The notes under the pieces are model-generated. The model was given only the letters and a program-made list of their open reading frames with translations, made no database searches and was not told the origin of the DNA. The position numbers and the translations under genes were made by a program. 62,304 nucleotides of DNA from a virus (taxonomy: Duplodnaviria > Caudoviricetes), in the IMG/VR virus record IMGVR_UViG_3300035682_000035, positions 1 to 62,304 of that record, one strand, 5' to 3'. Positions 39,901 to 61,811 of the stretch are shown here, in pieces; the first letter of the stretch is position 1; the number at the start of each line of letters is the position of its first letter.

Positions 39901-40718
39901 GCAAGCTTATGGGTCTTGACCCACGTGTCGCCTACGACTCCGACATTATGTTCCGTGCATGGTTGATGGATAAGTTCGGAGAGCCGATGGTTGGCGACGT
40001 GTCGTTGGCAGACATTCTTATACACGGCCCGCTTGGCGCTTTATCGAACACTGAACTGTCTAGCCGTACATCACTCGACCTCAAGAATATGTGGTTCCGC
40101 GAAGCAGTTGCAGGTGACTCCACTGGTGACAGCATAATAAAAACACTGCTGGCTAACGTAGCAGGTGGGCAGATGCTTATTCAGGCGTTCAATGCAAAGG
40201 ATAACTTTGCTGAAGGCGATATGTATGGTGGTATCAAGAAGATGGCACCTGCGTTTGTTCGGTCATGGGTAGCAGCGGAGCAAGGGGAAGCCGAAGGTGT
40301 GGTTACCCGCAAGGGTGATGTCATTATAGATAAGAACGATATCACTGGGTTGGATACGTTCCGCACGATATCTGGCTTCCGACCACTGCGTCTTGCTAGA
40401 TGGCAGGACTACTACATCACTCGTAGTAAGAACGACAAAAAGATAAAGGCGGAGAAGACCCAGCTGCTATCCACCTTGGATAGGAAGCTACGTGAGGGTG
40501 ATATTACTTCTAAGGAGCAACTACAGGAGTTCATCACCGACGAGGTTATTCCGTTCAACCGCACGTACCCAGACCCAAGCTTCATAATTACCGAAGAGAC
40601 CATCATGCGGTCACTCAAGGGTCGTGCGGATGTACGGGGCCGCACAGTGCAGGGCATGCGGCTTGAGAAGAAGACTGCAGAGAAAGATATCGGTATGGCA
40701 GATAAGTTCCGCCCATAA
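33936..40718 (+). CDS. Large (2260 aa) ejection/polyvalent protein with zincin-like peptidase domain
   Basis: LFHEALGHVGL plus downstream EEILA; hydrophobic G/A segments; last late gene. Confidence 0.7.
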   Translation: MPDVRMPDGTVIRNVPAGITKAQLNAKLTKNGFDLNRLTTPKQKPSAIENIPLVGGLLAPIADIPLSAVEGLSGTTKSIADVFGADNVVSDAADYVAKAAAALKSAGSREDAEIASKIQKDAEGKGVWEEVKAAARAFTYSPLESIASVAGSAAPFIAAGVATGGTGAVPLATMAGLGAASGAGTIKGSVYDAVYSEFVKNGASEEDAAAAAEKAQEYSGKNIDQIALGGAIGALASATGFGPQFARSIGNNVVKKVAAEVAEREAVEAVKVGARKSVLGGVAKSAVVEAVPESVQGGQEKLSQNLALQREGFDVDTFRGVAGQAASEGIASLFLGGYGGARAAKAENRQILTEEIAQELDALPADADEQTISEAEARFVKRGFPLEKATQVVENLKSAKEAIDKQAAELERARAERMAQGEAEAAAEEGTGSNFTGPPPVDTEEEAAMQRMREAEFAGAGAPQQRKPSTIEQAAIDLVSAVDAGGVPFNTPRINAIGRGLGLDIGKNDKPEATIDRIRAAVGRFDFTPPISETQDTNAPPTGGVNAQYRRNTTQPTITPAFAATANEDEVRAFADQYGIDEAEAVERLSAAASSPSGIVYSRRGRPPSASTVEAAGQEGLFGALPTQEENRLDKFEEIQQRKLEQGALAPEDREAENQARADEFDRLQQERAAKDEQYTADFVKNIEDAIRRANPANEAYSVQVDATSPKPYRVVGPDGELFAAADNLQDFEAQAMDLLPYVAPPTSIQETDSANPTVATSMVQELTRDIDAARERGEIDNNQRTELIRQIERPDAYDKYGRPQDNIAKAEEEARAAMSKFRNTTGVEAKAAEAELAVANEKLTKLVNNRMLNPIRSKLRSMAENRQLEREGATSRVGSAKVQQKLGEMEGADTSAEQREQREAKIDIAEGRVSKYRRGEAQPGQVKTDVSKVRAAVDAIVSVWKGPPVVTVVQSVNDIADAKVRRAVMQDNATNAEGFVAPDGTVYLIADNLESVERAKAVLFHEALGHVGLEKLFRGELDSALTALYKSNGNIRANTDAWLAANPDAYAQDTNRTARAVEEILAEMSENGQLRPTMLKRIAAIIRNFARRLGINLAISDADVEAILAAGHERVVNGAQESTLVKGMRYINGWRGGAAPTTKYSRPKTTKQNKEKIGTAEASISPGMRRTQKSTSTNGIAEGVEQVVKGHSWKDWGGGLKDNLEAMAPPTLVATLKTIPTSGILNWFGPDIPTIREIDTLVQKMVAMKANILKAAEQIGMELDEFLLSDKDQLLAQTQSTARINEMAPDDFKSADDALANHPAMKEVEARILKNANDKVLAARIIAEVKALVMQSKDAITVKGDKVAMSTAMKKLVANLSKTAIDSKNTSDQMKQIAELTRRIRDTHALWDKLGELKNGHKLYKEIRSYYKDMFEAELALLDGRIASIAGTKEAKRLRDLRADMMREVMNPDESKKGGDIFYNLDSSLFTKDYFPFMRAGKYYIRVSAAKDGSREREFYQFETAKQQIAAKKAIAKRLGIDPEKNDGVLTIGYDVAQLQEELKTDDQMMKKIFDLVGKAKAEFASSGVLGASDFKDLTDSIYQTWLLSTPERSVRRRFMHAQEVVGFQQDILQNFASQASSYANQLSKLAYAGDIRLKTEEARDNVSDRPTTEQARLKAAIYELEQRAEDEINPSPQSSFINALNRASYFYYLTAPATAMLQLTSIPIRVVPRLWRDYGYAEGTRMWLKYMKIWNTLGKAKVQSTRTGIAGVGDSLDVLMPNILSSKLVSADTKEGKLLRRALAAGMERNVLETVQDTLIQNERETGQKHRTGAARTVAETAAVTGKAMGVMFQGLENISRQAAYFMAFELAYKAETAKNPGAPEKVVFDKAVTTALDTVRDTLGDYSNWERSRIMKNDVSRALFLFKMHPILQTKFLVGAMRDIGRGLYPGASPEAKAARAGAMKELGGVLMMAGVFGGLLGMPLYSVMALALSESFDEEDDEDVRKLMGLDPRVAYDSDIMFRAWLMDKFGEPMVGDVSLADILIHGPLGALSNTELSSRTSLDLKNMWFREAVAGDSTGDSIIKTLLANVAGGQMLIQAFNAKDNFAEGDMYGGIKKMAPAFVRSWVAAEQGEAEGVVTRKGDVIIDKNDITGLDTFRTISGFRPLRLARWQDYYITRSKNDKKIKAEKTQLLSTLDRKLREGDITSKEQLQEFITDEVIPFNRTYPDPSFIITEETIMRSLKGRADVRGRTVQGMRLEKKTAEKDIGMADKFRP

Positions 40719-40751
40719 AAAACCCCCGCTGGGGAGTAGGCCAGCGGGGGT
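40717..40751 (-). terminator. Intrinsic terminator at the early/late convergence
   Basis: 11-bp perfect stem ACCCCCGCTGG/CCAGCGGGGGT; U6 on minus strand. Confidence 0.9.
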
Positions 40752-40781
40752 AGTATCAACCAACGGAAGGAGCATCTTCCG
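40717..40781 (-). ncRNA. Candidate ~65-nt two-hairpin anti-SD small RNA
   Basis: Promoter at 40788-40816; hairpin CGGAAG-AUGCUC-CUUCCG; terminator hairpin with loop CCUACUCC and U6. Confidence 0.55.
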
Positions 40782-40787
40782 AGGACG

Positions 40788-40816
40788 TTTATAATCACAT
40801 CCTCCAGATACGTAAA
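40788..40816 (-). promoter_or_regulatory. Putative sigma70 promoter TTTACG-N17-TATAAA
   Basis: 17-nt spacer; predicted +1 (40781/40780) coincides with the hairpin start. Confidence 0.6.
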
Positions 40817-40995
40817 CCCCTAATACCAGATTTGGTATCCACCACGCTCCGGTACACTACCTTTAGCTTCAGTCTGCGTAGCACGGGGCGTATTTCCTTC
40901 TTAGCGGCTTTTGGGTCTAGGCACGGGAAGAACAGTGACGCGCCCTTGGTGAAGGCGCGCCAGTTTATATCGTAGCTGACCCCAGCTACCTTCAC
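40795..40995 (-). CDS. Small basic hypothetical protein
   Basis: Coupled to primase-helicase; SLFFPC...GLRIWR. Confidence 0.7.
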   Translation of the reverse strand: MKVAGVSYDINWRAFTKGASLFFPCLDPKAAKKEIRPVLRRLKLKVVYRSVVDTKSGIRGLRIWRM

Positions 40996-43826
40996 TCTTC
41001 GTCGGCGTCCGGCTTCACAGCCGTGATTGCGTTATTGAACAGGTCCGTAATGCCACTAAAGTCAGGGTGGTTAGCGTCGAAGATTAGCGACTGCACCGGC
41101 ACCGTGTTGACCTTCATGCCCTTTGACATGCGCTTGTTCTCTGCGTCAAGGTACAGGCCCTTGGCTTTCATAGCGTTAATGGTCGAGCGGTAAGCAATGT
41201 TACGTGCCCCACAATACTCACGGAACGAGCTAGCAGTTATGTATACCTTAGCAGTATCCGGTTCGTAGCGTATCATAAGCTCTCGCAACGGCTCTAACTG
41301 CGGTACTTCCACCATCTTGCTGCGACGGTCTACCCCGTCATTAACTATGAGAATGTTACCCAGACGGGCGTTCATAAACTCACCAAGTATCTGCTGGTCA
41401 CCTTCGGGTGGCGGTGTCATCGTGTTGCGTAGGTTGAGTATCATCTTGCACGTCCACTTAAAGATGGCAGCAATGTCCCAGTTACACAGGCCAAGATGCA
41501 GGGCGATGTAGATACCCGTTATGTTAGCTGCTGCTGTTGCCGACCAGAACCGCTCACGCTGTGTTAGCTTAAGCTTGGAGTCGATGCGCTGTTGAACCGT
41601 AGCATAAAGCGCCTTCACCTCGTCATAGTGCGTAATCAGGTACCGTGCGTAGATGTCACCTGCATGCCCGTAGTTTTCAAGCAACTGGTGGTCGAACATC
41701 TTCTTGCCATACTCGATGTCAATCGCGTCAGAATAGTCGATGCTGTATTCGATGATGCGCATGGTTTCACCATCAGGCGACCCCTTGGCAATCTCAAGCT
41801 TCTCGTAGAACGAGTGGTTAGACGAGCACAGTGCTATGGTCTGCCATGACGTCAGGTTTGCCCGAAGCTCGTTTGAAGACGCCTTCATGCGATCCTTGCC
41901 TGTACCCTGTGTAATCAAGTAGGCGAGTTCACTTAGTTGCTTGGGCTCTGTGTTCGACATTTCGTCGAAGCTGATATGCAGGTTACAGAAAACCCCTATC
42001 TTAAATACCTTCGAGTTGAACGTGTCGTCCTTCTTGGCACATAGCGCCGCTGGGTCGCCGTATACACTGTTAGCCATAAGCAGGGCTGTAGTCTTACCTG
42101 TACCTGACTTGGGGTGCACCACGTTAATGATTGCCCCACGTTGACCGGAGAAACGCAAGAGAGGCGCACCGAAGGCGGTGGCTGCTGCGAACGCATGCCC
42201 TTCAAGGCCCGGACGTCCGTACAGGTTAAACACCTCTGTCCACTTCTCCAACGTACCCTTAGCTGTCATGTGTTCGGCTAGTGCCTTGGTGACTGACGAC
42301 GGGGGGCTATGGTATGTCCCCTCGGCACTTATCTCACGGTCGCCTATAATAAACTTACTGTCGTTATCGACCCATCCAAATTGATTGCGCATTTGTTCTA
42401 CCTTTGTGTTGTGAAAATATTGAGCTACTGATTTTACTATGAAGTCCACCAAGTACGCATAATCGACCTTGGAGCTAAGCATCACGTGCTTAGAGGCGAG
42501 GAACTTGCGTAGCTCGTTACCGTCCATCACCTTTGAATTGTGCACCGTGAACTCTTTGACGCCATCCTGTGGGCTGTGCAGACGAATAAGTGCTACACCC
42601 CCCTCGACTGGGTCATCCATACGCTTGGCTACATATATGTCGTACGGATACACCAATACAACGTCCTCGACGCCTTCTTCCTCGTCTTTGGGTGTAACCT
42701 TGCGCCATACGCCACCGTGCTTGCCCCGTACGTAGGGGAAGGGAAACTCGGGTATATGGTACTTCACTGCCCCAAGCTGGGTTTCCTCTATAACTACGTT
42801 GTCCTCTGGAGTTGCCTCCTTCAGTTCTTTACCTAGTGTAATAGGGGAGCGTATCTTGCCAATGTGCGGGCACCCTGCACATCCGCCGGGATTGTGTTTC
42901 TCGAACTCCGCACATGTGTGCGGCCCGACTATGTGTGTTACCTTCTGCTCAACCTTGTCAGGGTCATAGTCAGGATGGTCTGCGGATAACTTGTGTATAG
43001 CCTTATCACGGTCCTTACAGAACTTGGCGATTGACAACGCAGCAAACCATCGTGGCTCAGATATTTCCCTGCGGTCTGCGTAACTAGCGTTAAGCTGCTT
43101 GCACCCGTTCTGACCACGGTTCATAATCTTGGTGAAGCTCGACTCCATGTTGGCACGTATAAGCTTAGCTAACGGGCTAGGTGCGAATGTAGGCATGTCA
43201 CCAAACAGTGTCGCCTTCGTCTCCTTTACCCCCAACAGGTCACGTATGTCCTGCATGGGTGTCGGCTTACCAATCGTTATGACTTCTACACGTAGGGGGT
43301 CCGTACCCTTAAAGTTAAACGTGCCGGGAATACGCAGGATACGCGCTGCTTCGAAGCAGCTGTTATCGACACGTAGCTCCTTAGTGGTGCAGACTTCCTT
43401 CAGCCTTAGACACACAGGCTCCCATTCTTCACGTGTAACTTCTTCAGTCAACGTCCAGTATACGTGCAGACCGCGCCCAGAATTAACTATGGTGGGCTTA
43501 GGCATACCGACTGTCTTGCAGAACTTACGAAGGGCATCTAACCCTTCTTCCTGTGTATCGTAGTCCTTCTCTGGCCCACAATCTATGTCGAGCCAAAGTG
43601 ACTTAAGTGACTTGACGTTTTCTTTCTTCCTGCTCTTACCGTCTGTATACTTAGCTACACCAAAAAATACATTCTTCCCTTGGTTGAGGAACGTCTTGGC
43701 CCATGCGTCGGCCTCTTCACGGGTCTCTACTAGCTCCTGTTGCTTGCTGTCGGGGCTTAGCCCGACGATAGCGTACCAACCCTCTTGGGGCTGCACCGCT
43801 GATAAAAGGTCAAAATCCTCTGCCAC
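40992..43826 (-). CDS. Primase-helicase (AEP/RepB-like primase, Cys cluster, DUF927-type helicase)
   Basis: WLDID, SGRGLHVYW, RILRIPGTFN; PHTC...CAGCPH; Walker A SGTGKTT; FDE. Confidence 0.85.
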   Translation of the reverse strand: MAEDFDLLSAVQPQEGWYAIVGLSPDSKQQELVETREEADAWAKTFLNQGKNVFFGVAKYTDGKSRKKENVKSLKSLWLDIDCGPEKDYDTQEEGLDALRKFCKTVGMPKPTIVNSGRGLHVYWTLTEEVTREEWEPVCLRLKEVCTTKELRVDNSCFEAARILRIPGTFNFKGTDPLRVEVITIGKPTPMQDIRDLLGVKETKATLFGDMPTFAPSPLAKLIRANMESSFTKIMNRGQNGCKQLNASYADRREISEPRWFAALSIAKFCKDRDKAIHKLSADHPDYDPDKVEQKVTHIVGPHTCAEFEKHNPGGCAGCPHIGKIRSPITLGKELKEATPEDNVVIEETQLGAVKYHIPEFPFPYVRGKHGGVWRKVTPKDEEEGVEDVVLVYPYDIYVAKRMDDPVEGGVALIRLHSPQDGVKEFTVHNSKVMDGNELRKFLASKHVMLSSKVDYAYLVDFIVKSVAQYFHNTKVEQMRNQFGWVDNDSKFIIGDREISAEGTYHSPPSSVTKALAEHMTAKGTLEKWTEVFNLYGRPGLEGHAFAAATAFGAPLLRFSGQRGAIINVVHPKSGTGKTTALLMANSVYGDPAALCAKKDDTFNSKVFKIGVFCNLHISFDEMSNTEPKQLSELAYLITQGTGKDRMKASSNELRANLTSWQTIALCSSNHSFYEKLEIAKGSPDGETMRIIEYSIDYSDAIDIEYGKKMFDHQLLENYGHAGDIYARYLITHYDEVKALYATVQQRIDSKLKLTQRERFWSATAAANITGIYIALHLGLCNWDIAAIFKWTCKMILNLRNTMTPPPEGDQQILGEFMNARLGNILIVNDGVDRRSKMVEVPQLEPLRELMIRYEPDTAKVYITASSFREYCGARNIAYRSTINAMKAKGLYLDAENKRMSKGMKVNTVPVQSLIFDANHPDFSGITDLFNNAITAVKPDADEE

Positions 43827-43889
43827 GCAGACACCACTCCATAGGGCAAGTCACAAGCCCACTCCTAAAAGAAAAAACTCTCTACCCCG

Positions 43890-44132
43890 TTAGGAAGTAG
43901 AGCTCTCCAGACTAGCCATGTATGAAGCTATAAGCGCCGTGGCACTGCCCTGCGGGACCGAAGTCCCGCAGAACCAGTTGTATACTGTTTGCCTCGTTAC
44001 ACCTGTACACTTGGCTACCACAGCTACGGGTATGTCCTGCGCGATACAGAGCCTACCCAGACGAACACCCAACTTGTGTTTGCTCGCCTTGGCATTTGCT
44101 TCCTGTATACGTAGACTATAACCGCCGCTCAT
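43890..44132 (-). CDS. Cro-like HTH regulator
   Basis: VAVVAKCTGVTRQTVYNWFCG. Confidence 0.8.
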   Translation of the reverse strand: MSGGYSLRIQEANAKASKHKLGVRLGRLCIAQDIPVAVVAKCTGVTRQTVYNWFCGTSVPQGSATALIASYMASLESSTS

Positions 44133-45489: not shown

Positions 45490-45526
45490 ATTTGTGCTCC
45501 TTCGTTGTAGTGGTACGTTATATTGT

Positions 45527-47103: not shown

Positions 47104-47119
47104 GACTGCTCCTTCGTGG

Positions 47120-48658: not shown

Positions 48659-48671
48659 TTAACTTGCTCCT

Positions 48672-51027: not shown

Positions 51028-51038
51028 TATTTTGCTCC

Positions 51039-51389
51039 TTAGTTTGTATCAATGTGCTGCATGGCGGTCTGGCTATTCTGTAGTATCTTCTTCTTCCTTG
51101 CTAGTTCCTCCAGCTTACGCTCGTACTCCTGCTCTTCCAGCTCCTTGCGGCGGTTTTCGGGGCCGTTGCAGAGTTCATCCATCACCTGTTCGTGGACTTC
51201 AGCCATACGAATATCGCGTATCTTTGCAGCGAGTGCAGCTTTGTCAGCCTCATTTCCGTGGGCGTGTATCGCGCTCAGGTGGTTATACCACCGGTCATGG
51301 TACGCCCCTTCCTTAAACCTAAACTCTTCGGGGTGGCTCTCCATCCGTGCGAGTAATAGCTTCACTGCGTCATGCGGTTCATCCGCCAT
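51039..51389 (-). CDS. Hypothetical protein
   Basis: SD AAGGAGCA; LLARMESHPEEF. Confidence 0.75.
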   Translation of the reverse strand: MADEPHDAVKLLLARMESHPEEFRFKEGAYHDRWYNHLSAIHAHGNEADKAALAAKIRDIRMAEVHEQVMDELCNGPENRRKELEEQEYERKLEELARKKKILQNSQTAMQHIDTN

Positions 51390-51402
51390 AGCTTGCTCCT
51401 TC

Positions 51403-51693: not shown

Positions 51694-53551
51694 AGCTTGC
51701 TCCTATCTTGCTTTCACAATTCAATGGTAACGTTGGTGCCCACTTGGGGCGCATGCGCATGCATGCTTCGACAAACGCACGGGCCTTGTCGGCCTCTTCT
51801 ACGGGGGCAATCACCCCCACGGCATCGTGCACGGTCATCACTACACGGTACTTACGTGCGACCATCAGCATCTGCTCACCTATAATAATACGGGCAAGTG
51901 CCTGACACACGTTCTCTATAAGCTTACCGCCGTATATATACGTAGGTAGCGTAGCCCGACCCCTCTTGACGTCGTAGACAAACTGGTCACGGCCCGACTT
52001 CTGGTCCCGCTGCTTGCGTAGGTTATCGTACCTCAAGTACATGCCGTTAGGCAGACGCACACCAAACATATCAATAAGCACGGCTTCATGCTTGCCTAGA
52101 GGTGCGGTCCGAGCGGACATAAGCGCGTCGAGAGCCTTGTCACCCTCCGCCCACAAGAGCGGTATGCGTTCGAACTGGTCCCTATACTTATACACGATGC
52201 TGGCGCACTCTGACGACGACAGCGATACGCCCATGGTCTCCAGCTGTACCTTAAACTTAGCCGCACCCATGCCATACCCAGCCCCAAGGATGGTCATCTT
52301 ACCTATGAAGCGCTCGGGGTGCTCGTTTATCTCGTTTACCGGCTTGTTATATATCTCCGACGCCATGATTTTGTACGGGTCGTACTGCATGTCCATCTTC
52401 TCTACACCCGCTGCGACTTCCGCATTGTTCTTATCAAAGAACTCCACAAGGTCTTCCTGCCCAGCTAGCCACGCCAAGGTGCGCGCTTCAATCTGCGACG
52501 AGTCACAGTCGATAAACACATAGCCTTTTGGTGCTAGCATGGACTTCTTGAGTGGTGACTTGCGTGGTAGGTTCTGGAGGTTCACCTTGTCGTCGCCACC
52601 CCACCTACCTGTGTGGGCTGCATAGTAACGTAGTGGGACTGGTAATGTCCCCCGGTCGGCAATAGCTATAAACCTCTCGGTGCGCGTTTCCTCAAGTGTA
52701 GACTTCACACCTAGTCGCGCAGCTACTACCGCCTGCACTGTCGGGTTGGGGTGCTCAAGCAGTGCCTTGAACCCCTCGTCACTCTTGGCGAAGGCAAATG
52801 CTTCCTTGCCTGTCTTCGGACTTACCTTCGTAGGTGGGACTACACCCATGTCACGTAGCAGCAAAGCTAGCTTCGGGTTGGACATCAGTGCGTCTTTGTC
52901 CGCCTCGACTGCTTCCATAAGCTCGGCTTTTTTGCTCCTCACATTAGACACGTGTTTTGTGAGGACTTGTTTGTCTAAGACCAGCACCGGCTCCGTAAAC
53001 ATTCTGATAGTAAGGTCGATAAGCCGCAGTTCAGACACAGGCATGAGTGGTGCCGTGACCTCAAACAACTTGTGCGTTAGCTCTACGTCATTGATGCAGT
53101 ACTCACCGTACCGCTCTAGGTCCTCGTCAGTAAAGTCCAGCCGCCGCTTACCCAGCGCGTTGATAACCTCTGTGCCCTTCTCGCCCAGACCATAGCGCTC
53201 GACTGCTTTAGCTAGGCTGTTACCAGCATGCGGCCCGTCGATAGCACGAAGCATAGACAGGGTATCTGCAATTCGCTTGGGTCGAATGTCATAACACCAG
53301 TTAAGGATTGCCATGTCGAACATAGCGTTGTGAGCCACAGCTACGCTGTTAGCCCAGTCCCACTTATCTAGCCACCGCTTGGTTTGCGCCTTGGTCCCGC
53401 TGAACCATTCAGTTGGTTCATTGTTACGCTTGACTGCAACACCGATGGTCTCGAACTGTGAGTCGCGGACATACTCCTCCGTTGTCAGCTTAGATAAGCT
53501 AAACTTCTGGCTGTAGTAGGTTTCGAAGTCGATGTTCAGAATGTCCATCAT
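51683..53551 (-). CDS. polA: Family A DNA polymerase with 3'-5' exonuclease
   Basis: IDFETY, AHNAMFD, YCIND; HTGRW, DSSQIEAR, KMTILGAGYG, VHDA. Confidence 0.93.
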   Translation of the reverse strand: MMDILNIDFETYYSQKFSLSKLTTEEYVRDSQFETIGVAVKRNNEPTEWFSGTKAQTKRWLDKWDWANSVAVAHNAMFDMAILNWCYDIRPKRIADTLSMLRAIDGPHAGNSLAKAVERYGLGEKGTEVINALGKRRLDFTDEDLERYGEYCINDVELTHKLFEVTAPLMPVSELRLIDLTIRMFTEPVLVLDKQVLTKHVSNVRSKKAELMEAVEADKDALMSNPKLALLLRDMGVVPPTKVSPKTGKEAFAFAKSDEGFKALLEHPNPTVQAVVAARLGVKSTLEETRTERFIAIADRGTLPVPLRYYAAHTGRWGGDDKVNLQNLPRKSPLKKSMLAPKGYVFIDCDSSQIEARTLAWLAGQEDLVEFFDKNNAEVAAGVEKMDMQYDPYKIMASEIYNKPVNEINEHPERFIGKMTILGAGYGMGAAKFKVQLETMGVSLSSSECASIVYKYRDQFERIPLLWAEGDKALDALMSARTAPLGKHEAVLIDMFGVRLPNGMYLRYDNLRKQRDQKSGRDQFVYDVKRGRATLPTYIYGGKLIENVCQALARIIIGEQMLMVARKYRVVMTVHDAVGVIAPVEEADKARAFVEACMRMRPKWAPTLPLNCESKIGASYGG

Positions 53552-54402: not shown

Positions 54403-54424
54403 GTCGTTTGCTCCTTCTTATGAG

Positions 54425-55296: not shown

Positions 55297-55310
55297 CGTC
55301 TTGCTCCTTC

Positions 55311-56162: not shown

Positions 56163-56173
56163 GTGCTTGCTCC

Positions 56174-57361
56174 TTAGTTGATATGTATTGTCTTGCCTGT
56201 TGATGCGACCATCTTGCCACCGCCTGTGATTACCCACAGTATCGGTGCGCCATTCCAGTCCGAACCCCAGTTAGGCACGAACCCGTCTGTGAACATGATG
56301 ATGCAGTCGGCCTTGATATCCTGCTCCTTGAGGTATTGCTCCATAGCGCCGGGGTTCGTACCACCCCCACCTACTGGCTTAGTGGAGTTACGGAATGACC
56401 CGCGTGTCGAGTCATCATACACTTCATGCCCTGCCATGGTGTGGTCCCAGTAGATGATGTGTAGCTTGTCAGGCGTAACCACAGATAAGATAGCGTCAGT
56501 CTCCGACAGGTTCCGTGTGTGGTCCTCGTTTGTGATGGACCCAGACGTATCACAGCCAATCACGATGTTTTTCACGCGCTCACCGACGAGGCTGGGCATG
56601 ATAGTATCTGATGATAGAAACCTACGGTTTGGTTTGCGCCACGATGAGTAGTCACGGCCAGCACAGGTAGTGTTGACGAACTCCTGTAACAGCGTACGCC
56701 AGTCTACCTTGGGCTCGAGGATGTCCGACAACTCACGCGACATACCACCAGCACCTTTGCCGTGCATCTTCTGTGCAGCAATCATACCCTGACGGATAGC
56801 TTGGTCTACTTGCTTAGACAGCTCTTCCTTCTCTTCCTTGGTCAGTTCGCTAGCACCTTCCCAGTCATGCTCGTCGAAGCCACCGCTGCCGCCACCGTCA
56901 CCGCCTTCTTGCTTCTCCTTCTTGAGAATGTCGAACACCTGCTTGGTATTCATACCTGCGAACCTGCGGTCTATAAGACCTGCTGGCTTACCATCCTTCT
57001 GCGGCATAGCTACCACCGTGCCACTCGGGTCACGGGTGATAATCTCTAGGTTGATGACGTAGTCACAGGCCATGTTAGTTAGCTGTGCGTCCTCCTGCCA
57101 TAGCTTCTGCCATGTAGTTAGGTGGCGATACATCTTGTGGAATGACTCATGCACCACGACGAAAGCTACCTCTGGTATGGATAGCGCGTCGATGAAGGCG
57201 CGTCCGTATATCTCGTCACGCCCGTTAGTAGCTGCGGTTGGTGTGGTCTCACACACCTCCTTCGTGCCCATCATGAAGATGCCGGACATGTCTGCGAACA
57301 ACGGGTTACGCATGAGGTCGATTACCACACGTGTTAGTTTACGCTCGGCTGTTAGTGCCAT
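56174..57361 (-). CDS. HExxH metallopeptidase plus VWA protein (DUF2201-like)
   Basis: PTAATNG, HESFH, ACDYVIN; MIDAS DTSGS, GGGGT, FTDG. Confidence 0.85.
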   Translation of the reverse strand: MALTAERKLTRVVIDLMRNPLFADMSGIFMMGTKEVCETTPTAATNGRDEIYGRAFIDALSIPEVAFVVVHESFHKMYRHLTTWQKLWQEDAQLTNMACDYVINLEIITRDPSGTVVAMPQKDGKPAGLIDRRFAGMNTKQVFDILKKEKQEGGDGGGSGGFDEHDWEGASELTKEEKEELSKQVDQAIRQGMIAAQKMHGKGAGGMSRELSDILEPKVDWRTLLQEFVNTTCAGRDYSSWRKPNRRFLSSDTIMPSLVGERVKNIVIGCDTSGSITNEDHTRNLSETDAILSVVTPDKLHIIYWDHTMAGHEVYDDSTRGSFRNSTKPVGGGGTNPGAMEQYLKEQDIKADCIIMFTDGFVPNWGSDWNGAPILWVITGGGKMVASTGKTIHIN

Positions 57362-57521
57362 TAGCTTGCTCCTTTAGTCTGTTAGTTGCGTATACGTATG
57401 CGCTTAGCTCGTCGGGGTGGTCGAAGAATGAAACGTGCATGACTTTGCGATTGGATAGATTAACCTGCCATATCGACCAAATCTCACTACGCTTCACATC
57501 CACCACGTGAAGCCCATCCAC
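57339..57521 (-). CDS. Small hypothetical protein
   Basis: Fills the gap between AAA and VWA genes. Confidence 0.55.
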   Translation of the reverse strand: MDGLHVVDVKRSEIWSIWQVNLSNRKVMHVSFFDHPDELSAYVYATNRLKEQANGTNSRA

Positions 57522-58594: not shown

Positions 58595-58613
58595 GATATG
58601 CTCCTTGTTATTG

Positions 58614-60838: not shown

Positions 60839-61065
60839 TGGTCTTGCTCCTTATCATTCCATTCTTCGCAGCTGCTGCACTGCCATTGCTTTGGCATAGC
60901 TGCCATTGGGTCACAGCCTTCACCGCAGTAGCTGCATGGTGCGTAGCTACAGTCGTATTCTATAAAGGCGGGGCTTAGTGGTATGTCGTAGAACTGATAC
61001 CCTTCGGCTTCCAGCTGCGCACGTAGTGCGGTGCCCTTGGCGAATAGTGCTGACTTGCTATACAT
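60835..61065 (-). CDS. Small Zn-ribbon protein
   Basis: CSYC...CSSC; SD AAGGAGCA. Confidence 0.65.
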   Translation of the reverse strand: MYSKSALFAKGTALRAQLEAEGYQFYDIPLSPAFIEYDCSYAPCSYCGEGCDPMAAMPKQWQCSSCEEWNDKEQDQ

Positions 61066-61291
61066 CTGCTTGCTCCTTAACTGTGGTTAAGCTTGGGAAC
61101 TTGTAGCCAAAGTCCTTGATTAATATGTCGCGTACATTTTCGCGGTCCACGCTGTCACCTTCGAACTCTATGTTTGTCCGGTGCTTGTGTATCTTAGTAG
61201 CTGACTTAACGTCGGTTAGCGTTACGCCCATCGGATACAGACCGCCCTTGCCATAGAAGCTAAGCACGTAGGTATAGAACTCATCCATCAT
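61058..61291 (-). CDS. Hypothetical protein; likely start MMDEFY
   Basis: FYG..GLYP...FEGDSVDRE.VRD; SD AAGGAGCA. Confidence 0.75.
   Translation of the reverse strand: MMDEFYTYVLSFYGKGGLYPMGVTLTDVKSATKIHKHRTNIEFEGDSVDRENVRDILIKDFGYKFPSLTTVKEQADV
61076..61091. promoter_or_regulatory. Operator-like palindrome CTTAAC-TGTG-GTTAAG
   Basis: Overlaps RBS of gene starting 61065. Confidence 0.6.
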
Positions 61292-61515
61292 TGGTCTTGC
61301 TCCTTCAGTTTCTCGTATATCTGCGCCATGCTCATGCCTTTGAGTTCTTCTGGCACTTCGACGTATTCGTCGATGGTTTCGTTGTTTTGACGCGCCCATT
61401 CTAAGATAGCTGCTAGCTTCTCCTCTGGTGTACGCTTGGCGTAGTTAGCCCATGCGTAGTGCTGCTTGCGTGACGCCATGAACGCATCAAACTTTTTCTT
61501 CCAATCACTCATCAT
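61288..61515 (-). CDS. Hypothetical protein
   Basis: Coupled ORF; SD GAGG. Confidence 0.7.
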   Translation of the reverse strand: MMSDWKKKFDAFMASRKQHYAWANYAKRTPEEKLAAILEWARQNNETIDEYVEVPEELKGMSMAQIYEKLKEQDQ

Positions 61516-61782: not shown

Positions 61783-61811
61783 AAAGTAGCACAAAGTCCC
61801 TCTTATGTCAA
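61783..61811 (-). promoter_or_regulatory. Main early promoter TTGACA-N17-TACTTT with extended -10 TG
   Basis: Consensus -35, 17-nt spacer, heads the early operon. Confidence 0.8.

Follow-up and report, generated by a model that had tools for sequence, protein, structure and literature searches.

A predicted RNA complementary to early ribosome-binding sites

In the 62,304-nucleotide (nt) phage genome IMGVR_UViG_3300035682_000035 (Duplodnaviria; Caudoviricetes), hereafter the window, that is, the whole stretch of DNA that was analysed, we found a short minus-strand element that folds into a hairpin complementary to the ribosome-binding sites of 14 early genes. We consider it rather probable that this element gives a phage small RNA, which is also the 3′ end of the early messenger RNA (mRNA), and that this RNA pairs with the early translation-initiation regions and represses them. 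Judged from the relatives of this phage, the core idea, namely RNA pairing with ribosome sites shared by the early genes, has real comparative support.

Direct terminal repeats are present in the window, a complete phage genome record of 62.3 kilobases (kb). Its plus-strand block (1535-40718) holds the terminase and a last gene of 2260 amino acids (aa), and we presume that it contains the late genes. Its minus-strand block (61757-40795) encodes DNA polymerase A, a SNF2-type helicase, a DUF927 primase/helicase (40992-43826), nucleases and a methyltransferase, and is presumed to be the early, or replication, module. Gene content is the basis for both presumptions. The convergent blocks are separated by a 76-nt gap, from the stop of a 66-aa open reading frame (ORF; 40795-40995, minus strand) to the plus-strand stop codon TAA (40716-40718). 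The predicted RNA lies in this gap and has the following parts.

40717..40781, minus strand: predicted small RNA of ~65 nt, made of a 5′ hairpin, a spacer and a terminator, also the 3′ end of the early-operon mRNA (from sequence and fold)
40764..40781, minus strand: hairpin 1, with stem CGGAAG/CUUCCG (6 base pairs, bp) and loop AUGCUC (40775-40770)
40752..40763, minus strand: single-stranded G/U-rich spacer UUGGUUGAUACU, 12 nt
40717..40751, minus strand: intrinsic terminator, with an 11-bp G+C-rich stem, an 8-nt loop CCUACUCC and a U-run (hairpin 40751-40722, U-run to 40717)

The promoter-like pair TTTACG-N17-TATAAA, hairpin 1 and the terminator had been read off this DNA in the original prediction, and all three were confirmed from the sequence, as was the described fold. 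A 66-nt RNA starting at 40781 has a folding energy of −31.7 kcal/mol (z = −5.2), and none of 200 shuffled sequences was equally stable. The loop of hairpin 1 was unpaired in both the minimum-energy and the centroid folds, and the anti-ribosome-site stretch UGCUCCUUC (40774-40766, minus strand) is situated within this loop and the 3′ arm. The terminator was the strongest one in the 36-46 kb region. On the plus strand, the stop codon TAA abuts it and there is no U-run after it.

The motif AGGAGCA occurs 20 times in the window against 8.85 ± 3.05 expected, a number reached by none of 100 shuffles. Sixteen copies are on the minus strand, between 45.4 and 61.3 kb, and all but two of them are followed, at a distance of 5-8 nt, by a start codon. 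This bears out the proposal that hairpin 1 is complementary to the AGGAGCA-type ribosome sites of 14 early genes. These target-type genes, 13 ORFs of at least 76 aa and one of 31 aa, are preceded by the following sites.

45495..45501, minus strand: GAAGGAGCA, 7 nt before ATG 45489 (133 aa, Pam3 gp33-like)
47107..47113, minus strand: GAAGGAGCA, 5 nt before GTG 47103 (SNF2-type helicase, 514 aa)
48665..48671, minus strand: GAAGGAGCA, before ATG 48658 (195 aa, DUF6378)
51033..51039, minus strand: AAGGAGCA, before ATG 51027 (228 aa, methyltransferase domain)
51394..51400, minus strand: GAAGGAGCA, before ATG 51389 (116 aa)
51698..51704, minus strand: AGGAGCA, before ATG 51693 (96 aa)
54409..54415, minus strand: GAAGGAGCA, before ATG 54402 (104 aa, Hjc/VRR-NUC-like nuclease)
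55302..55308, minus strand: GAAGGAGCA, before ATG 55296 (286 aa)
56168..56174, minus strand: AAGGAGCA, before ATG 56162 (283 aa)
57367..57373, minus strand: AAGGAGCA, before ATG 57361 (395 aa, DUF2201 metallopeptidase/VWA-like)
58599..58605, minus strand: AAGGAGCAU, before ATG 58594 (357 aa, AAA ATPase)
60845..60851, minus strand: AAGGAGCA, before ATG 60838 (31-aa ORF only)
61071..61077, minus strand: AAGGAGCA, before ATG 61065 (76 aa)
61298..61304, minus strand: GAAGGAGCA, before ATG 61291 (77 aa)

The word GAAGGAGCA was found eight times against 0.46 expected, as seven ribosome sites plus the reverse complement carried by the hairpin itself. Incidentally, two minus-strand copies of AGGAGCA (52933-52939 and 56322-56328) lie inside coding sequence, that of the DNA polymerase and of the DUF2201 gene, respectively, and are not followed by a start codon; should the RNA act, it would have internal sites there.

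Late genes had been said to lack AGGAGCA ribosome sites, and this held: AGGAG was continued by CA in 13 of 17 early sites versus 0 of 10 late ones (heuristic gene calls; Fisher p = 1.2e-4). A perfect complement of at least 9 nt to hairpin 1 was present in 8/35 early start regions versus 0/45 late ones (p = 8e-4). Energies computed with RNAduplex on the whole untranslated region (UTR) were swamped by the G+C-rich terminator and were replaced by cofold and exact-complement counts. With the energy needed to open the hairpin taken into account, net cofold energies of −10 to −14 kcal/mol were obtained for the nine best early targets, except for a value of −20.0 kcal/mol for gene 50132, whose start region was the strongest predicted target. 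Energies of −10 kcal/mol or lower were obtained for 9/36 early versus 3/45 late start regions, and of −12 kcal/mol or lower for 5/36 versus 0/45.

In the cofold models, the spacer pairs with CAACC-like stretches 5′ of some early ribosome sites. Most relatives in the window's clade and in the clade with UUUG loops (see below) retain the GGUUG of the spacer. We also noticed that the spacer GUUGGUUG and the seed together form a long, nearly unbroken complement to CAACCAGAGAAGGAGUA, the start region of gene 50132, and that CAACC-like stretches stand upstream of the ribosome site in several early start regions.

The original prediction had counted about 18 target genes by using the terminator loop as a second seed. 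The matches themselves exist (GGGAGTA before 49602 and the others it named). Those of at least 6 nt, however, occurred in 3 of 35 called early start regions (4 with 49602) versus 2 of 45 late ones, which is chance level, and the sequence of this loop varies among relatives. We thus dropped the terminator loop as a seed, which brings the count to 14.

Loops and ribosome-binding sites change together

Relatives were taken from IMG/VR. A first scan gave 59 loci with primase identities from 99% to 46%, and a second scan, by primase alignment, gave 298 relatives, of which the best 80 were kept. We typed the 88 loci with at least 300 nt after the primase stop, the others being too short or repeats of the same contigs. 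For genome-wide counts, we used the whole or a large part of the sequence of 15 contigs (17-61 kb).

Whether the loop co-varies with the early ribosome-site motif in relatives had been put forward as the decisive test, and the outcome was positive in several lineages. The loop base before GCUC predicts the base after GGAGC in the early ribosome sites of the same genome: UUUGCUC goes with GGAGCAAA, UUAGCUC with GGAGCUAA, UUCGCUC with GGAGCGAA, and UUUUCCUU with AAGGAAAA. In called early genes, the base N of GGAGC[N]A was distributed as follows.

UUUG loop (G002, G003, G004, G014): A in 4, 6, 9 and 12 genes; other bases in 0-1
UUAG loop (G007): U in 2 genes, A in 0 (raw early-strand counts 4 versus 1)
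UUCG loop (G008): G in 6 genes, A in 1 (raw counts 10 versus 1, 3, 1)
No element (G011-G013): 0-1 genes per base, no dominant extension

Counting distinct contexts in the few kb upstream of the primase at the 88 loci, we found A 49 times and other bases 0 times with UUUG loops, U 5 times and A once with UUAG loops, and G twice and A twice with UUCG loops; the 11 loci devoid of the element had 2 such ribosome-site contexts in total. Of the 12 genomes with a GCUCC-containing element, six had the 8-mer complementary to their own loop as the top-ranking one among all GGAGCNNN, two had it in second place and one in third place, and its count was 0 in the other three (the window, G005 and G009). With matches of at least 10 nt, the G008 hairpin matched 4/32 of its own early genes and the G007 hairpin 2/30, to which one gene each in G001 and G009 can be added, and UUUG hairpins matched 0 genes in G007, G008 and G001. 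Pooled over ten genomes, which are not independent of one another, a complement of at least 9 nt to the own hairpin was found in 0/221 late versus 56/386 early genes.

Other loop types had their own site families. The Type H relatives have UUUUCCUUGAAG with the AAGGAA(AA) family of ribosome sites, L173 has GGUUGCUCC with the site GGAGCAACC, and L047 has two loops, CUCCUCCUUUC and GUCGCUCC, with the sites AGGAGGAG and GGAGCGAC. The A or C that stands 5′ of UGCUC in the loops of the window's clade did not track the ribosome-site base after GGAGCA.

A separate observation concerns relatives without the element, which we noted together as L121-L123 and L126. L121 has its own repeated ribosome-site cassette, ACAGGAGATA, at three sites, and one similar site was seen in L123; there was no obvious complementary hairpin after the small ORF of L121. 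A shared ribosome-site extension can exist without the element, or its partner lies elsewhere in genomes of the L121 type.

Conservation of the hairpin and the terminator

The region after the primase could be aligned across clades. GCUCC was invariant in all 25 distinct hairpins aligned, while the stem of hairpin 1 took alternative forms (GGAAG/CUUCC, GAGAG/CUCUC, GGAUG/CAUCC, GGAAAG/CUUUCC). Among 17 distinct hairpins with a 7-nt loop, the 5 inner pairs were 100% paired, and 3 of the pairs had changed on both sides (in 7, 6 and 2 sequences). The covariation score was 0.447 versus 0.199 for shuffled alignments, none of 500 scoring as high, and no slid register preserved the pairs. By this comparison, hairpin 1 is a selected structure. 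A fixed loop on a covarying stem has the look of an element that makes base-specific contacts, and hairpin 1 would be more than a mere stabiliser, because a stabiliser would need no conserved loop. The terminator with its U-run was kept in every element-bearing relative seen; its stem covaries too, with G.U pairs on the minus strand.

We placed the loop types on a primase tree of 74 rows, identical primases being merged. UUUG loops are spread through a large clade. The 6-nt-loop type of the window is nested in this UUUG clade, next to L036, and a second 6-nt-loop lineage (L114, L119) has a separate origin. UUCG forms one clade, and UUAG occurs in two lineages of the other deep branch.

A separate RNA or the 3′ end of the early mRNA

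Upstream of hairpin 1, the end of the small ORF overlaps promoter-like sequences.

40795..40995, minus strand: conserved small ORF of 66 aa, ending ..GIRGLRIWRM*, the last gene of the early operon; it hosts the promoter-like box and shows coding-type conservation
40813..40833, minus strand: 21 nt of frozen synonymous sites, AAA TCT GGT ATT AGG GGT TTA, reaching upstream of the box
40811..40816, minus strand: −35-like box TTTACG, in the last codons of the small ORF, with frozen synonymous sites
40788..40793, minus strand: −10-like hexamer TATAAA, 17 nt after the box, 1 nt (base 40794) after the stop codon and 6 nt before hairpin 1

The codons AGG, GGT and TTA were invariant (33/33, 36/36 and 36/36), whereas the other Arg, Leu and Gly codons of the ORF vary, with a synonymous entropy of 1.4-2.2 bits. 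The box was absent from all 11 loci without the RNA element, where GGCATTCGG or GGCATCCG stands instead. A hexamer starting with TA was found 16-19 nt downstream of the box in 52 of 53 distinct sequences, although the picker favours TA and chance would account for about a fifth. In the two main clades, 5-7 nt separate the end of the hexamer from hairpin 1, and the outer clades have hexamers near the consensus (TAAAAT, TAGAAT, TATACT, TAGACT). From these sequences, we lean towards TTTACG and the TA-start hexamer being an internal promoter. An own promoter is plausible in that the box is frozen and tied to the presence of the element; against it, the pair is at chance level within the window's genome and its −10 is weak. 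A search of sequencing runs matched no RNA run; it returned 2 runs of unknown kind, from one study, with 0.20-0.24 of the words.

The frozen stretch extends ~15 nt further than a −35 element requires (40817-40833, minus strand; AAA TCT GGT ATT AGG). Going by its sequence, it could be an UP-like or activator site, or an RNA partner of GCUCCU. As a matter of fact, when a longer stretch was folded with RNAalifold, the invariant AGGGGU in the ORF was paired with GCUCCU; since both sides are invariant, there is no covariation signal either way. In this model, the alternative fold might be a second reason for the frozen codons.

Proposed mechanism and alternative explanations

The scheme we favour starts from the exposed loop, which is the Watson-Crick complement of an extended ribosome-site "address", (A)AGGAGCA.., that marks 14 replication-module genes and none of the structural ones. 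The loop would nucleate pairing with the GGAGC-plus-spacer part of the start regions, after which the 3′ arm could join the duplex (CUUCC with GGAAG). This would block ribosome binding, and the mRNA may also be opened to RNases, the expected outcome in the cell being that translation of many early genes is lowered together. The RNA would be part of every full-length early transcript and would probably also be made, and accumulate, separately, starting at about 40781 from a promoter within the terminal codons of the small ORF. With such a separate promoter, the RNA could outnumber its targets. The specific roles suggested in the original prediction, namely an early-to-late switch, a carrier state or superinfection immunity, gained no support.

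Several observations weigh against this scheme. In the window's clade, the loop is shortened (AUGCUC) by the loss of two 5′ U, so that the complement ends at GGAGCA and reaches 9 nt at most, and 5 of the 9 complementary bases of the window's seed are buried in the stem. A UUUG-type hairpin would in fact fit the window's sites better than the resident one (11 versus 8 matches of at least 9 nt, 6 versus 0 of at least 10 nt). The energies of the whole RNA separate early from late start regions modestly (means −6.9 versus −5.0 kcal/mol, p = 0.03), and the early/late difference was not significant in 2 of the 6 genomes tested. On the promoter side, the final T expected of a −10 element is missing from the hexamer in 40 of 53 distinct sequences, among them the window with its TATAAA (T in 13/53); the window's pair was missed by a consensus scan because its −10 ends in A; and TTTACG-N16-18-TA occurs 7 times in the window's genome versus 5.5 expected, which is not above chance. 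If the 3′ end of the operon alone supplies the RNA, there is one copy for 14 sites per transcript. As to the co-variation, the loop classes were read off the same data and the gene starts came from a heuristic caller; the independent events are few, roughly three to five, because loop types cluster on the primase tree; and, at the DNA level, co-variation looks the same for a minus-strand antisense loop and for a plus-strand copy of the ribosome site. Last, the family was seen in metagenomic contigs only.

As a first alternative, the hairpin would act solely in cis, as the 3′ untranslated end of the early mRNA folding onto one of its own start regions, with a role in feedback, stability or RNase III processing. 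The pairing between the 3′ UTR and the 5′ UTR of the icaR mRNA of Staphylococcus aureus is an analogue. In favour of this, the early operon physically ends with the element, the window's clade has a weak −10-like hexamer, and both complementarity and co-variation fit pairing in cis equally well. A single 3′ end, however, cannot fill 14 sites of the same transcript, and the frozen −35-like box at a fixed spacing, its loss jointly with the element and the near-consensus −10 hexamers of the outer clades point to an internal promoter. We hold action in cis only to be unlikely, although it deserves some weight. The pairing being supported but not its sign, the RNA might conversely protect or activate: the site extension would be recognised by a RegB-like nuclease or a RegA-like repressor, and the RNA would mask it or compete, thereby stabilising or timing early expression. 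Extended ribosome-site motifs of T4 early genes do act as recognition sites for proteins, according to the part of the source available to us (PMC3014915). We rate this possibility as quite unlikely, as pairing across GGAG would itself shut out the 30S subunit, and no RegA- or RegB-like protein was noticed in Pfam and PHROG scans, which covered part of the genes.

The symmetry of co-variation on DNA also allows for a plus-strand reading, in which the hairpin of late read-through transcripts, or of the DNA itself, would present the early motif once more (GGAAGGAGCAUCUUCC) and act as a decoy, drawing off a factor that recognises early sites; loop and sites would then co-vary as instances of one motif. 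The missing U-run after the terminator on the plus strand means that late transcripts may read into the hairpin. We nevertheless assign the element to the minus strand because the promoter-like elements, the U-run and the G.U pairs of the terminator are all found there, and because the hairpin has internal G.U pairs in L022 and L173, which the plus strand would turn into A.C mismatches. No candidate binding protein is known either, and we regard the decoy as highly improbable. We give the least credit to the view that this is an ordinary 3′ end, with a stabilising hairpin and a bidirectional terminator between convergent operons and an incidental likeness to ribosome sites. It would account for the location between convergent genes and for the strong terminator; any CUCC-containing hairpin complements Shine-Dalgarno sequences; and the distant phage RHph_TM27A, of the same layout, has a plain terminator. 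Yet an invariant loop is more than stabilisation calls for, the complement runs 2-5 nt past the Shine-Dalgarno core and tracks the genome's own site family in at least four states, and genomes without the hairpin are without the shared extension. An ordinary 3′ end is thus already disfavoured by the co-variation.

Genome setting and related phages

The small ORF encodes a conserved protein of ~64 aa, in which W10, P22, C23, R39, G55 and W62 were invariant among 18 sequences. It is retained even in relatives without the RNA element. It matched no Pfam or PHROG family. Its AlphaFold model (predicted local distance difference test, pLDDT, 87.7) has a strand-helix-strand-strand fold. Considered as a possible RNA-binding partner, the protein received no assignment, the top Foldseek match in the PDB having E = 0.29.

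At the other end of the minus-strand block, we read by eye a promoter-like TTGACA-N17-TACTTT upstream of the first minus-strand genes (61783-61811, minus strand) and noted a second promoter-like site, TTTAAA-N18-TACAAT (61785-61756, minus strand). These are candidate promoters of the early operon and, by their sequence, suggest that the host uses promoters of the sigma-70 type. A terminator-like hairpin with a U-run (43880-43902, minus strand) lies in the 63-nt gap directly upstream of the primase gene and may attenuate the early operon from within.

No integrase or repressor family was returned by the Pfam and PHROG scans of part of the genes, and no DNA match to the window was found among 50,697 phage records. 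The best protein relatives of the primase were from Pseudomonas phage Rollin (29%) and from Rhizobium phages RHph_TM27A and relatives (25%). The primase, the small ORF and the convergent layout are present in Rollin and the RHph_TM27A group, and the anti-ribosome-site hairpin is absent there. Three contigs of the family, L173, L174 and L175 (64,095, 8,257 and 61,705 nt), come from metagenome-assembled genomes labelled Caulobacteraceae, Actinomycetota and Sericytochromatia. Such a spread of one phage family over three phyla suggests binning artefacts, and these labels are therefore of no use for calling the host. Incidentally, in G007 (the contig of L130), the match to DNA polymerase A is split into two pieces (query 2-424 and 417-621) that are ~520 nt apart within one 800-aa frame (C1:7210-9564), possibly owing to an in-frame insertion, either an intein or an inserted domain.

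Significance

Phages shut off their early genes by means of proteins, such as T4 RegA and RegB, and use antisense RNAs such as c4, sar and OOP against single targets. If confirmed, the RNA described here would be the first to carry out a module-wide early shut-off, as far as the literature searched shows. Ribosome-binding sites would then carry regulatory addresses beyond the Shine-Dalgarno core, and tag and reader would co-evolve across a widespread metagenomic phage family, with about a dozen own genes per RNA. It would also provide natural orthogonal pairs of RNA and ribosome site, one base apart, usable as parts for synthetic biology and for a compensatory-mutation test. In uncultured phages, a shared extension of the early ribosome sites plus its reverse complement in a hairpin loop offers a route to discovery from sequence only.

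A bolder proposition, which we put forward as a doubtful one, is that the loop/site pairs UUUG:CAAA, UUAG:CUAA, UUCG:CGAA and UUCC:GGAA are specificity types of an RNA "address code", by which an established infection, besides timing its own passage from early to late expression, would silence the early genes of a superinfecting relative of the same type. Were this true, each lineage would tag its replication-module genes with a private extension and read the tag with one small RNA, and escape from cross-silencing would drive the joint drift of the loop and a dozen ribosome sites. It would amount to a heteroimmunity like that of P1 versus P7, yet in an apparently lytic phage and acting on a whole gene module.

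Comparison with known systems

Rfam 15 returned 0 matches at gathering thresholds in the 62,304 bases. The best Rfam score below threshold was that of NsiR1 (RF02399), a cyanobacterial 60-nt small RNA, with matches that span exactly 40715-40781 on the minus strand. The phage RNA resembles NsiR1 in its hairpin-spacer-terminator layout, in spanning the whole model and in a shared AGAUGC. We rejected homology, as the score was 32.9 bits against a threshold of 39, fell to 21.9-23.8 bits in the relatives L025 and L036, where only the terminator was matched, and no match was listed in L083, L130 and L090. The likeness is thus local to the window's sequence and does not mean membership, because in relatives the score falls to the terminator part. 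The ar14 model (RF02344, "cuckoo") reached 25.6 bits in the window and 29.9 bits in L025, below its threshold of 58.8. At E up to 10, other families (among them sX13, anti-hemB and a betaproteobacterial toxic small RNA class) scored 9-18 bits against thresholds of 40-60, with 13-18 bits for anti-hemB, sX13 and the toxic class; no Rfam C4 match was among the loose-threshold listings. These likenesses are ones of architecture, not of family membership.

Among bacterial RNAs, and in the portions of the sources that we drew on, ar14/"cuckoo" (RF02344), AbcR1 (PMC4152367) and RsaE of Firmicutes (PMC6158497) resemble the phage RNA in being short, in directing a pyrimidine-rich loop at many ribosome-binding regions and in ending with an intrinsic terminator. 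In the alignment to the ar14 model, both loops of the phage RNA face CUCCUCCC loops of that model. Unlike these three, the RNA described here is encoded by a phage, would have the phage's own genes as targets and would read a private site extension that co-evolves with its loop. It has several features expected of a trans-acting small RNA: a terminator with a U-run, a conserved exposed seed (with 5 of the 9 seed bases in the stem in the window) and joint change of seed and target. The plasmid antisense RNAs that govern copy number and incompatibility, such as R1 CopA and ColE1 RNA I, begin to pair through a loop of 6-7 nt, and changing one base in loop and target makes a new specificity group. 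Those RNAs are cis-encoded, fully complementary and have one target, whereas the phage RNA would be trans-encoded, with a short seed and many targets.

P4 CI RNA is grouped with c4 as an immunity RNA. For the phage RNA we found neither a leader target in its own operon nor a role in lysogenic immunity, both of which characterise P1 c4 and P4 CI. As described in the part of the source consulted, the c4 antisense RNA of P1 and P7 pairs by its loops around the ribosome-binding site of a phage mRNA and blocks translation (PMC12197685). Like c4, the element described here would direct a phage RNA loop against a ribosome-binding site, and its loop/target variants would be specificity types, as in P1 versus P7 (PMC12197685, in part). 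In contrast, by the same portion of that source, c4 maintains lysogenic immunity and has a single target region, located in the operon to which it belongs (PMC12197685), whereas 14 dispersed start regions, from 45.4 to 61.3 kb, are concerned here.

In function, T4 offers one of the three closest parallels, beside anti-Shine-Dalgarno RNAs such as AbcR1 and RsaE and the c4 RNA. The strong sites of RegB share GG*AGRAYARAA, middle and late mRNAs escape, and an aid to the early-to-late transition has been proposed, going by the sections of the source at hand (PMC3014915). As with RegB and RegA, for which we rely on the same sections, one phage factor would inactivate many early mRNAs via a motif in the translation-initiation region (PMC3014915). 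Those factors are proteins, whereas here the recogniser would be an RNA acting by base pairing. In the literature covered, which included a 2025 review of phage small RNAs and a transcriptome paper on Pseudomonas phages, was incomplete and left out supplementary tables, the parts seen described no phage RNA directed against the shared ribosome site of the phage's own early genes. Collectively, these comparisons would place the finding within the base-pairing control of translation initiation, the new part being a module-wide, co-evolving "address".

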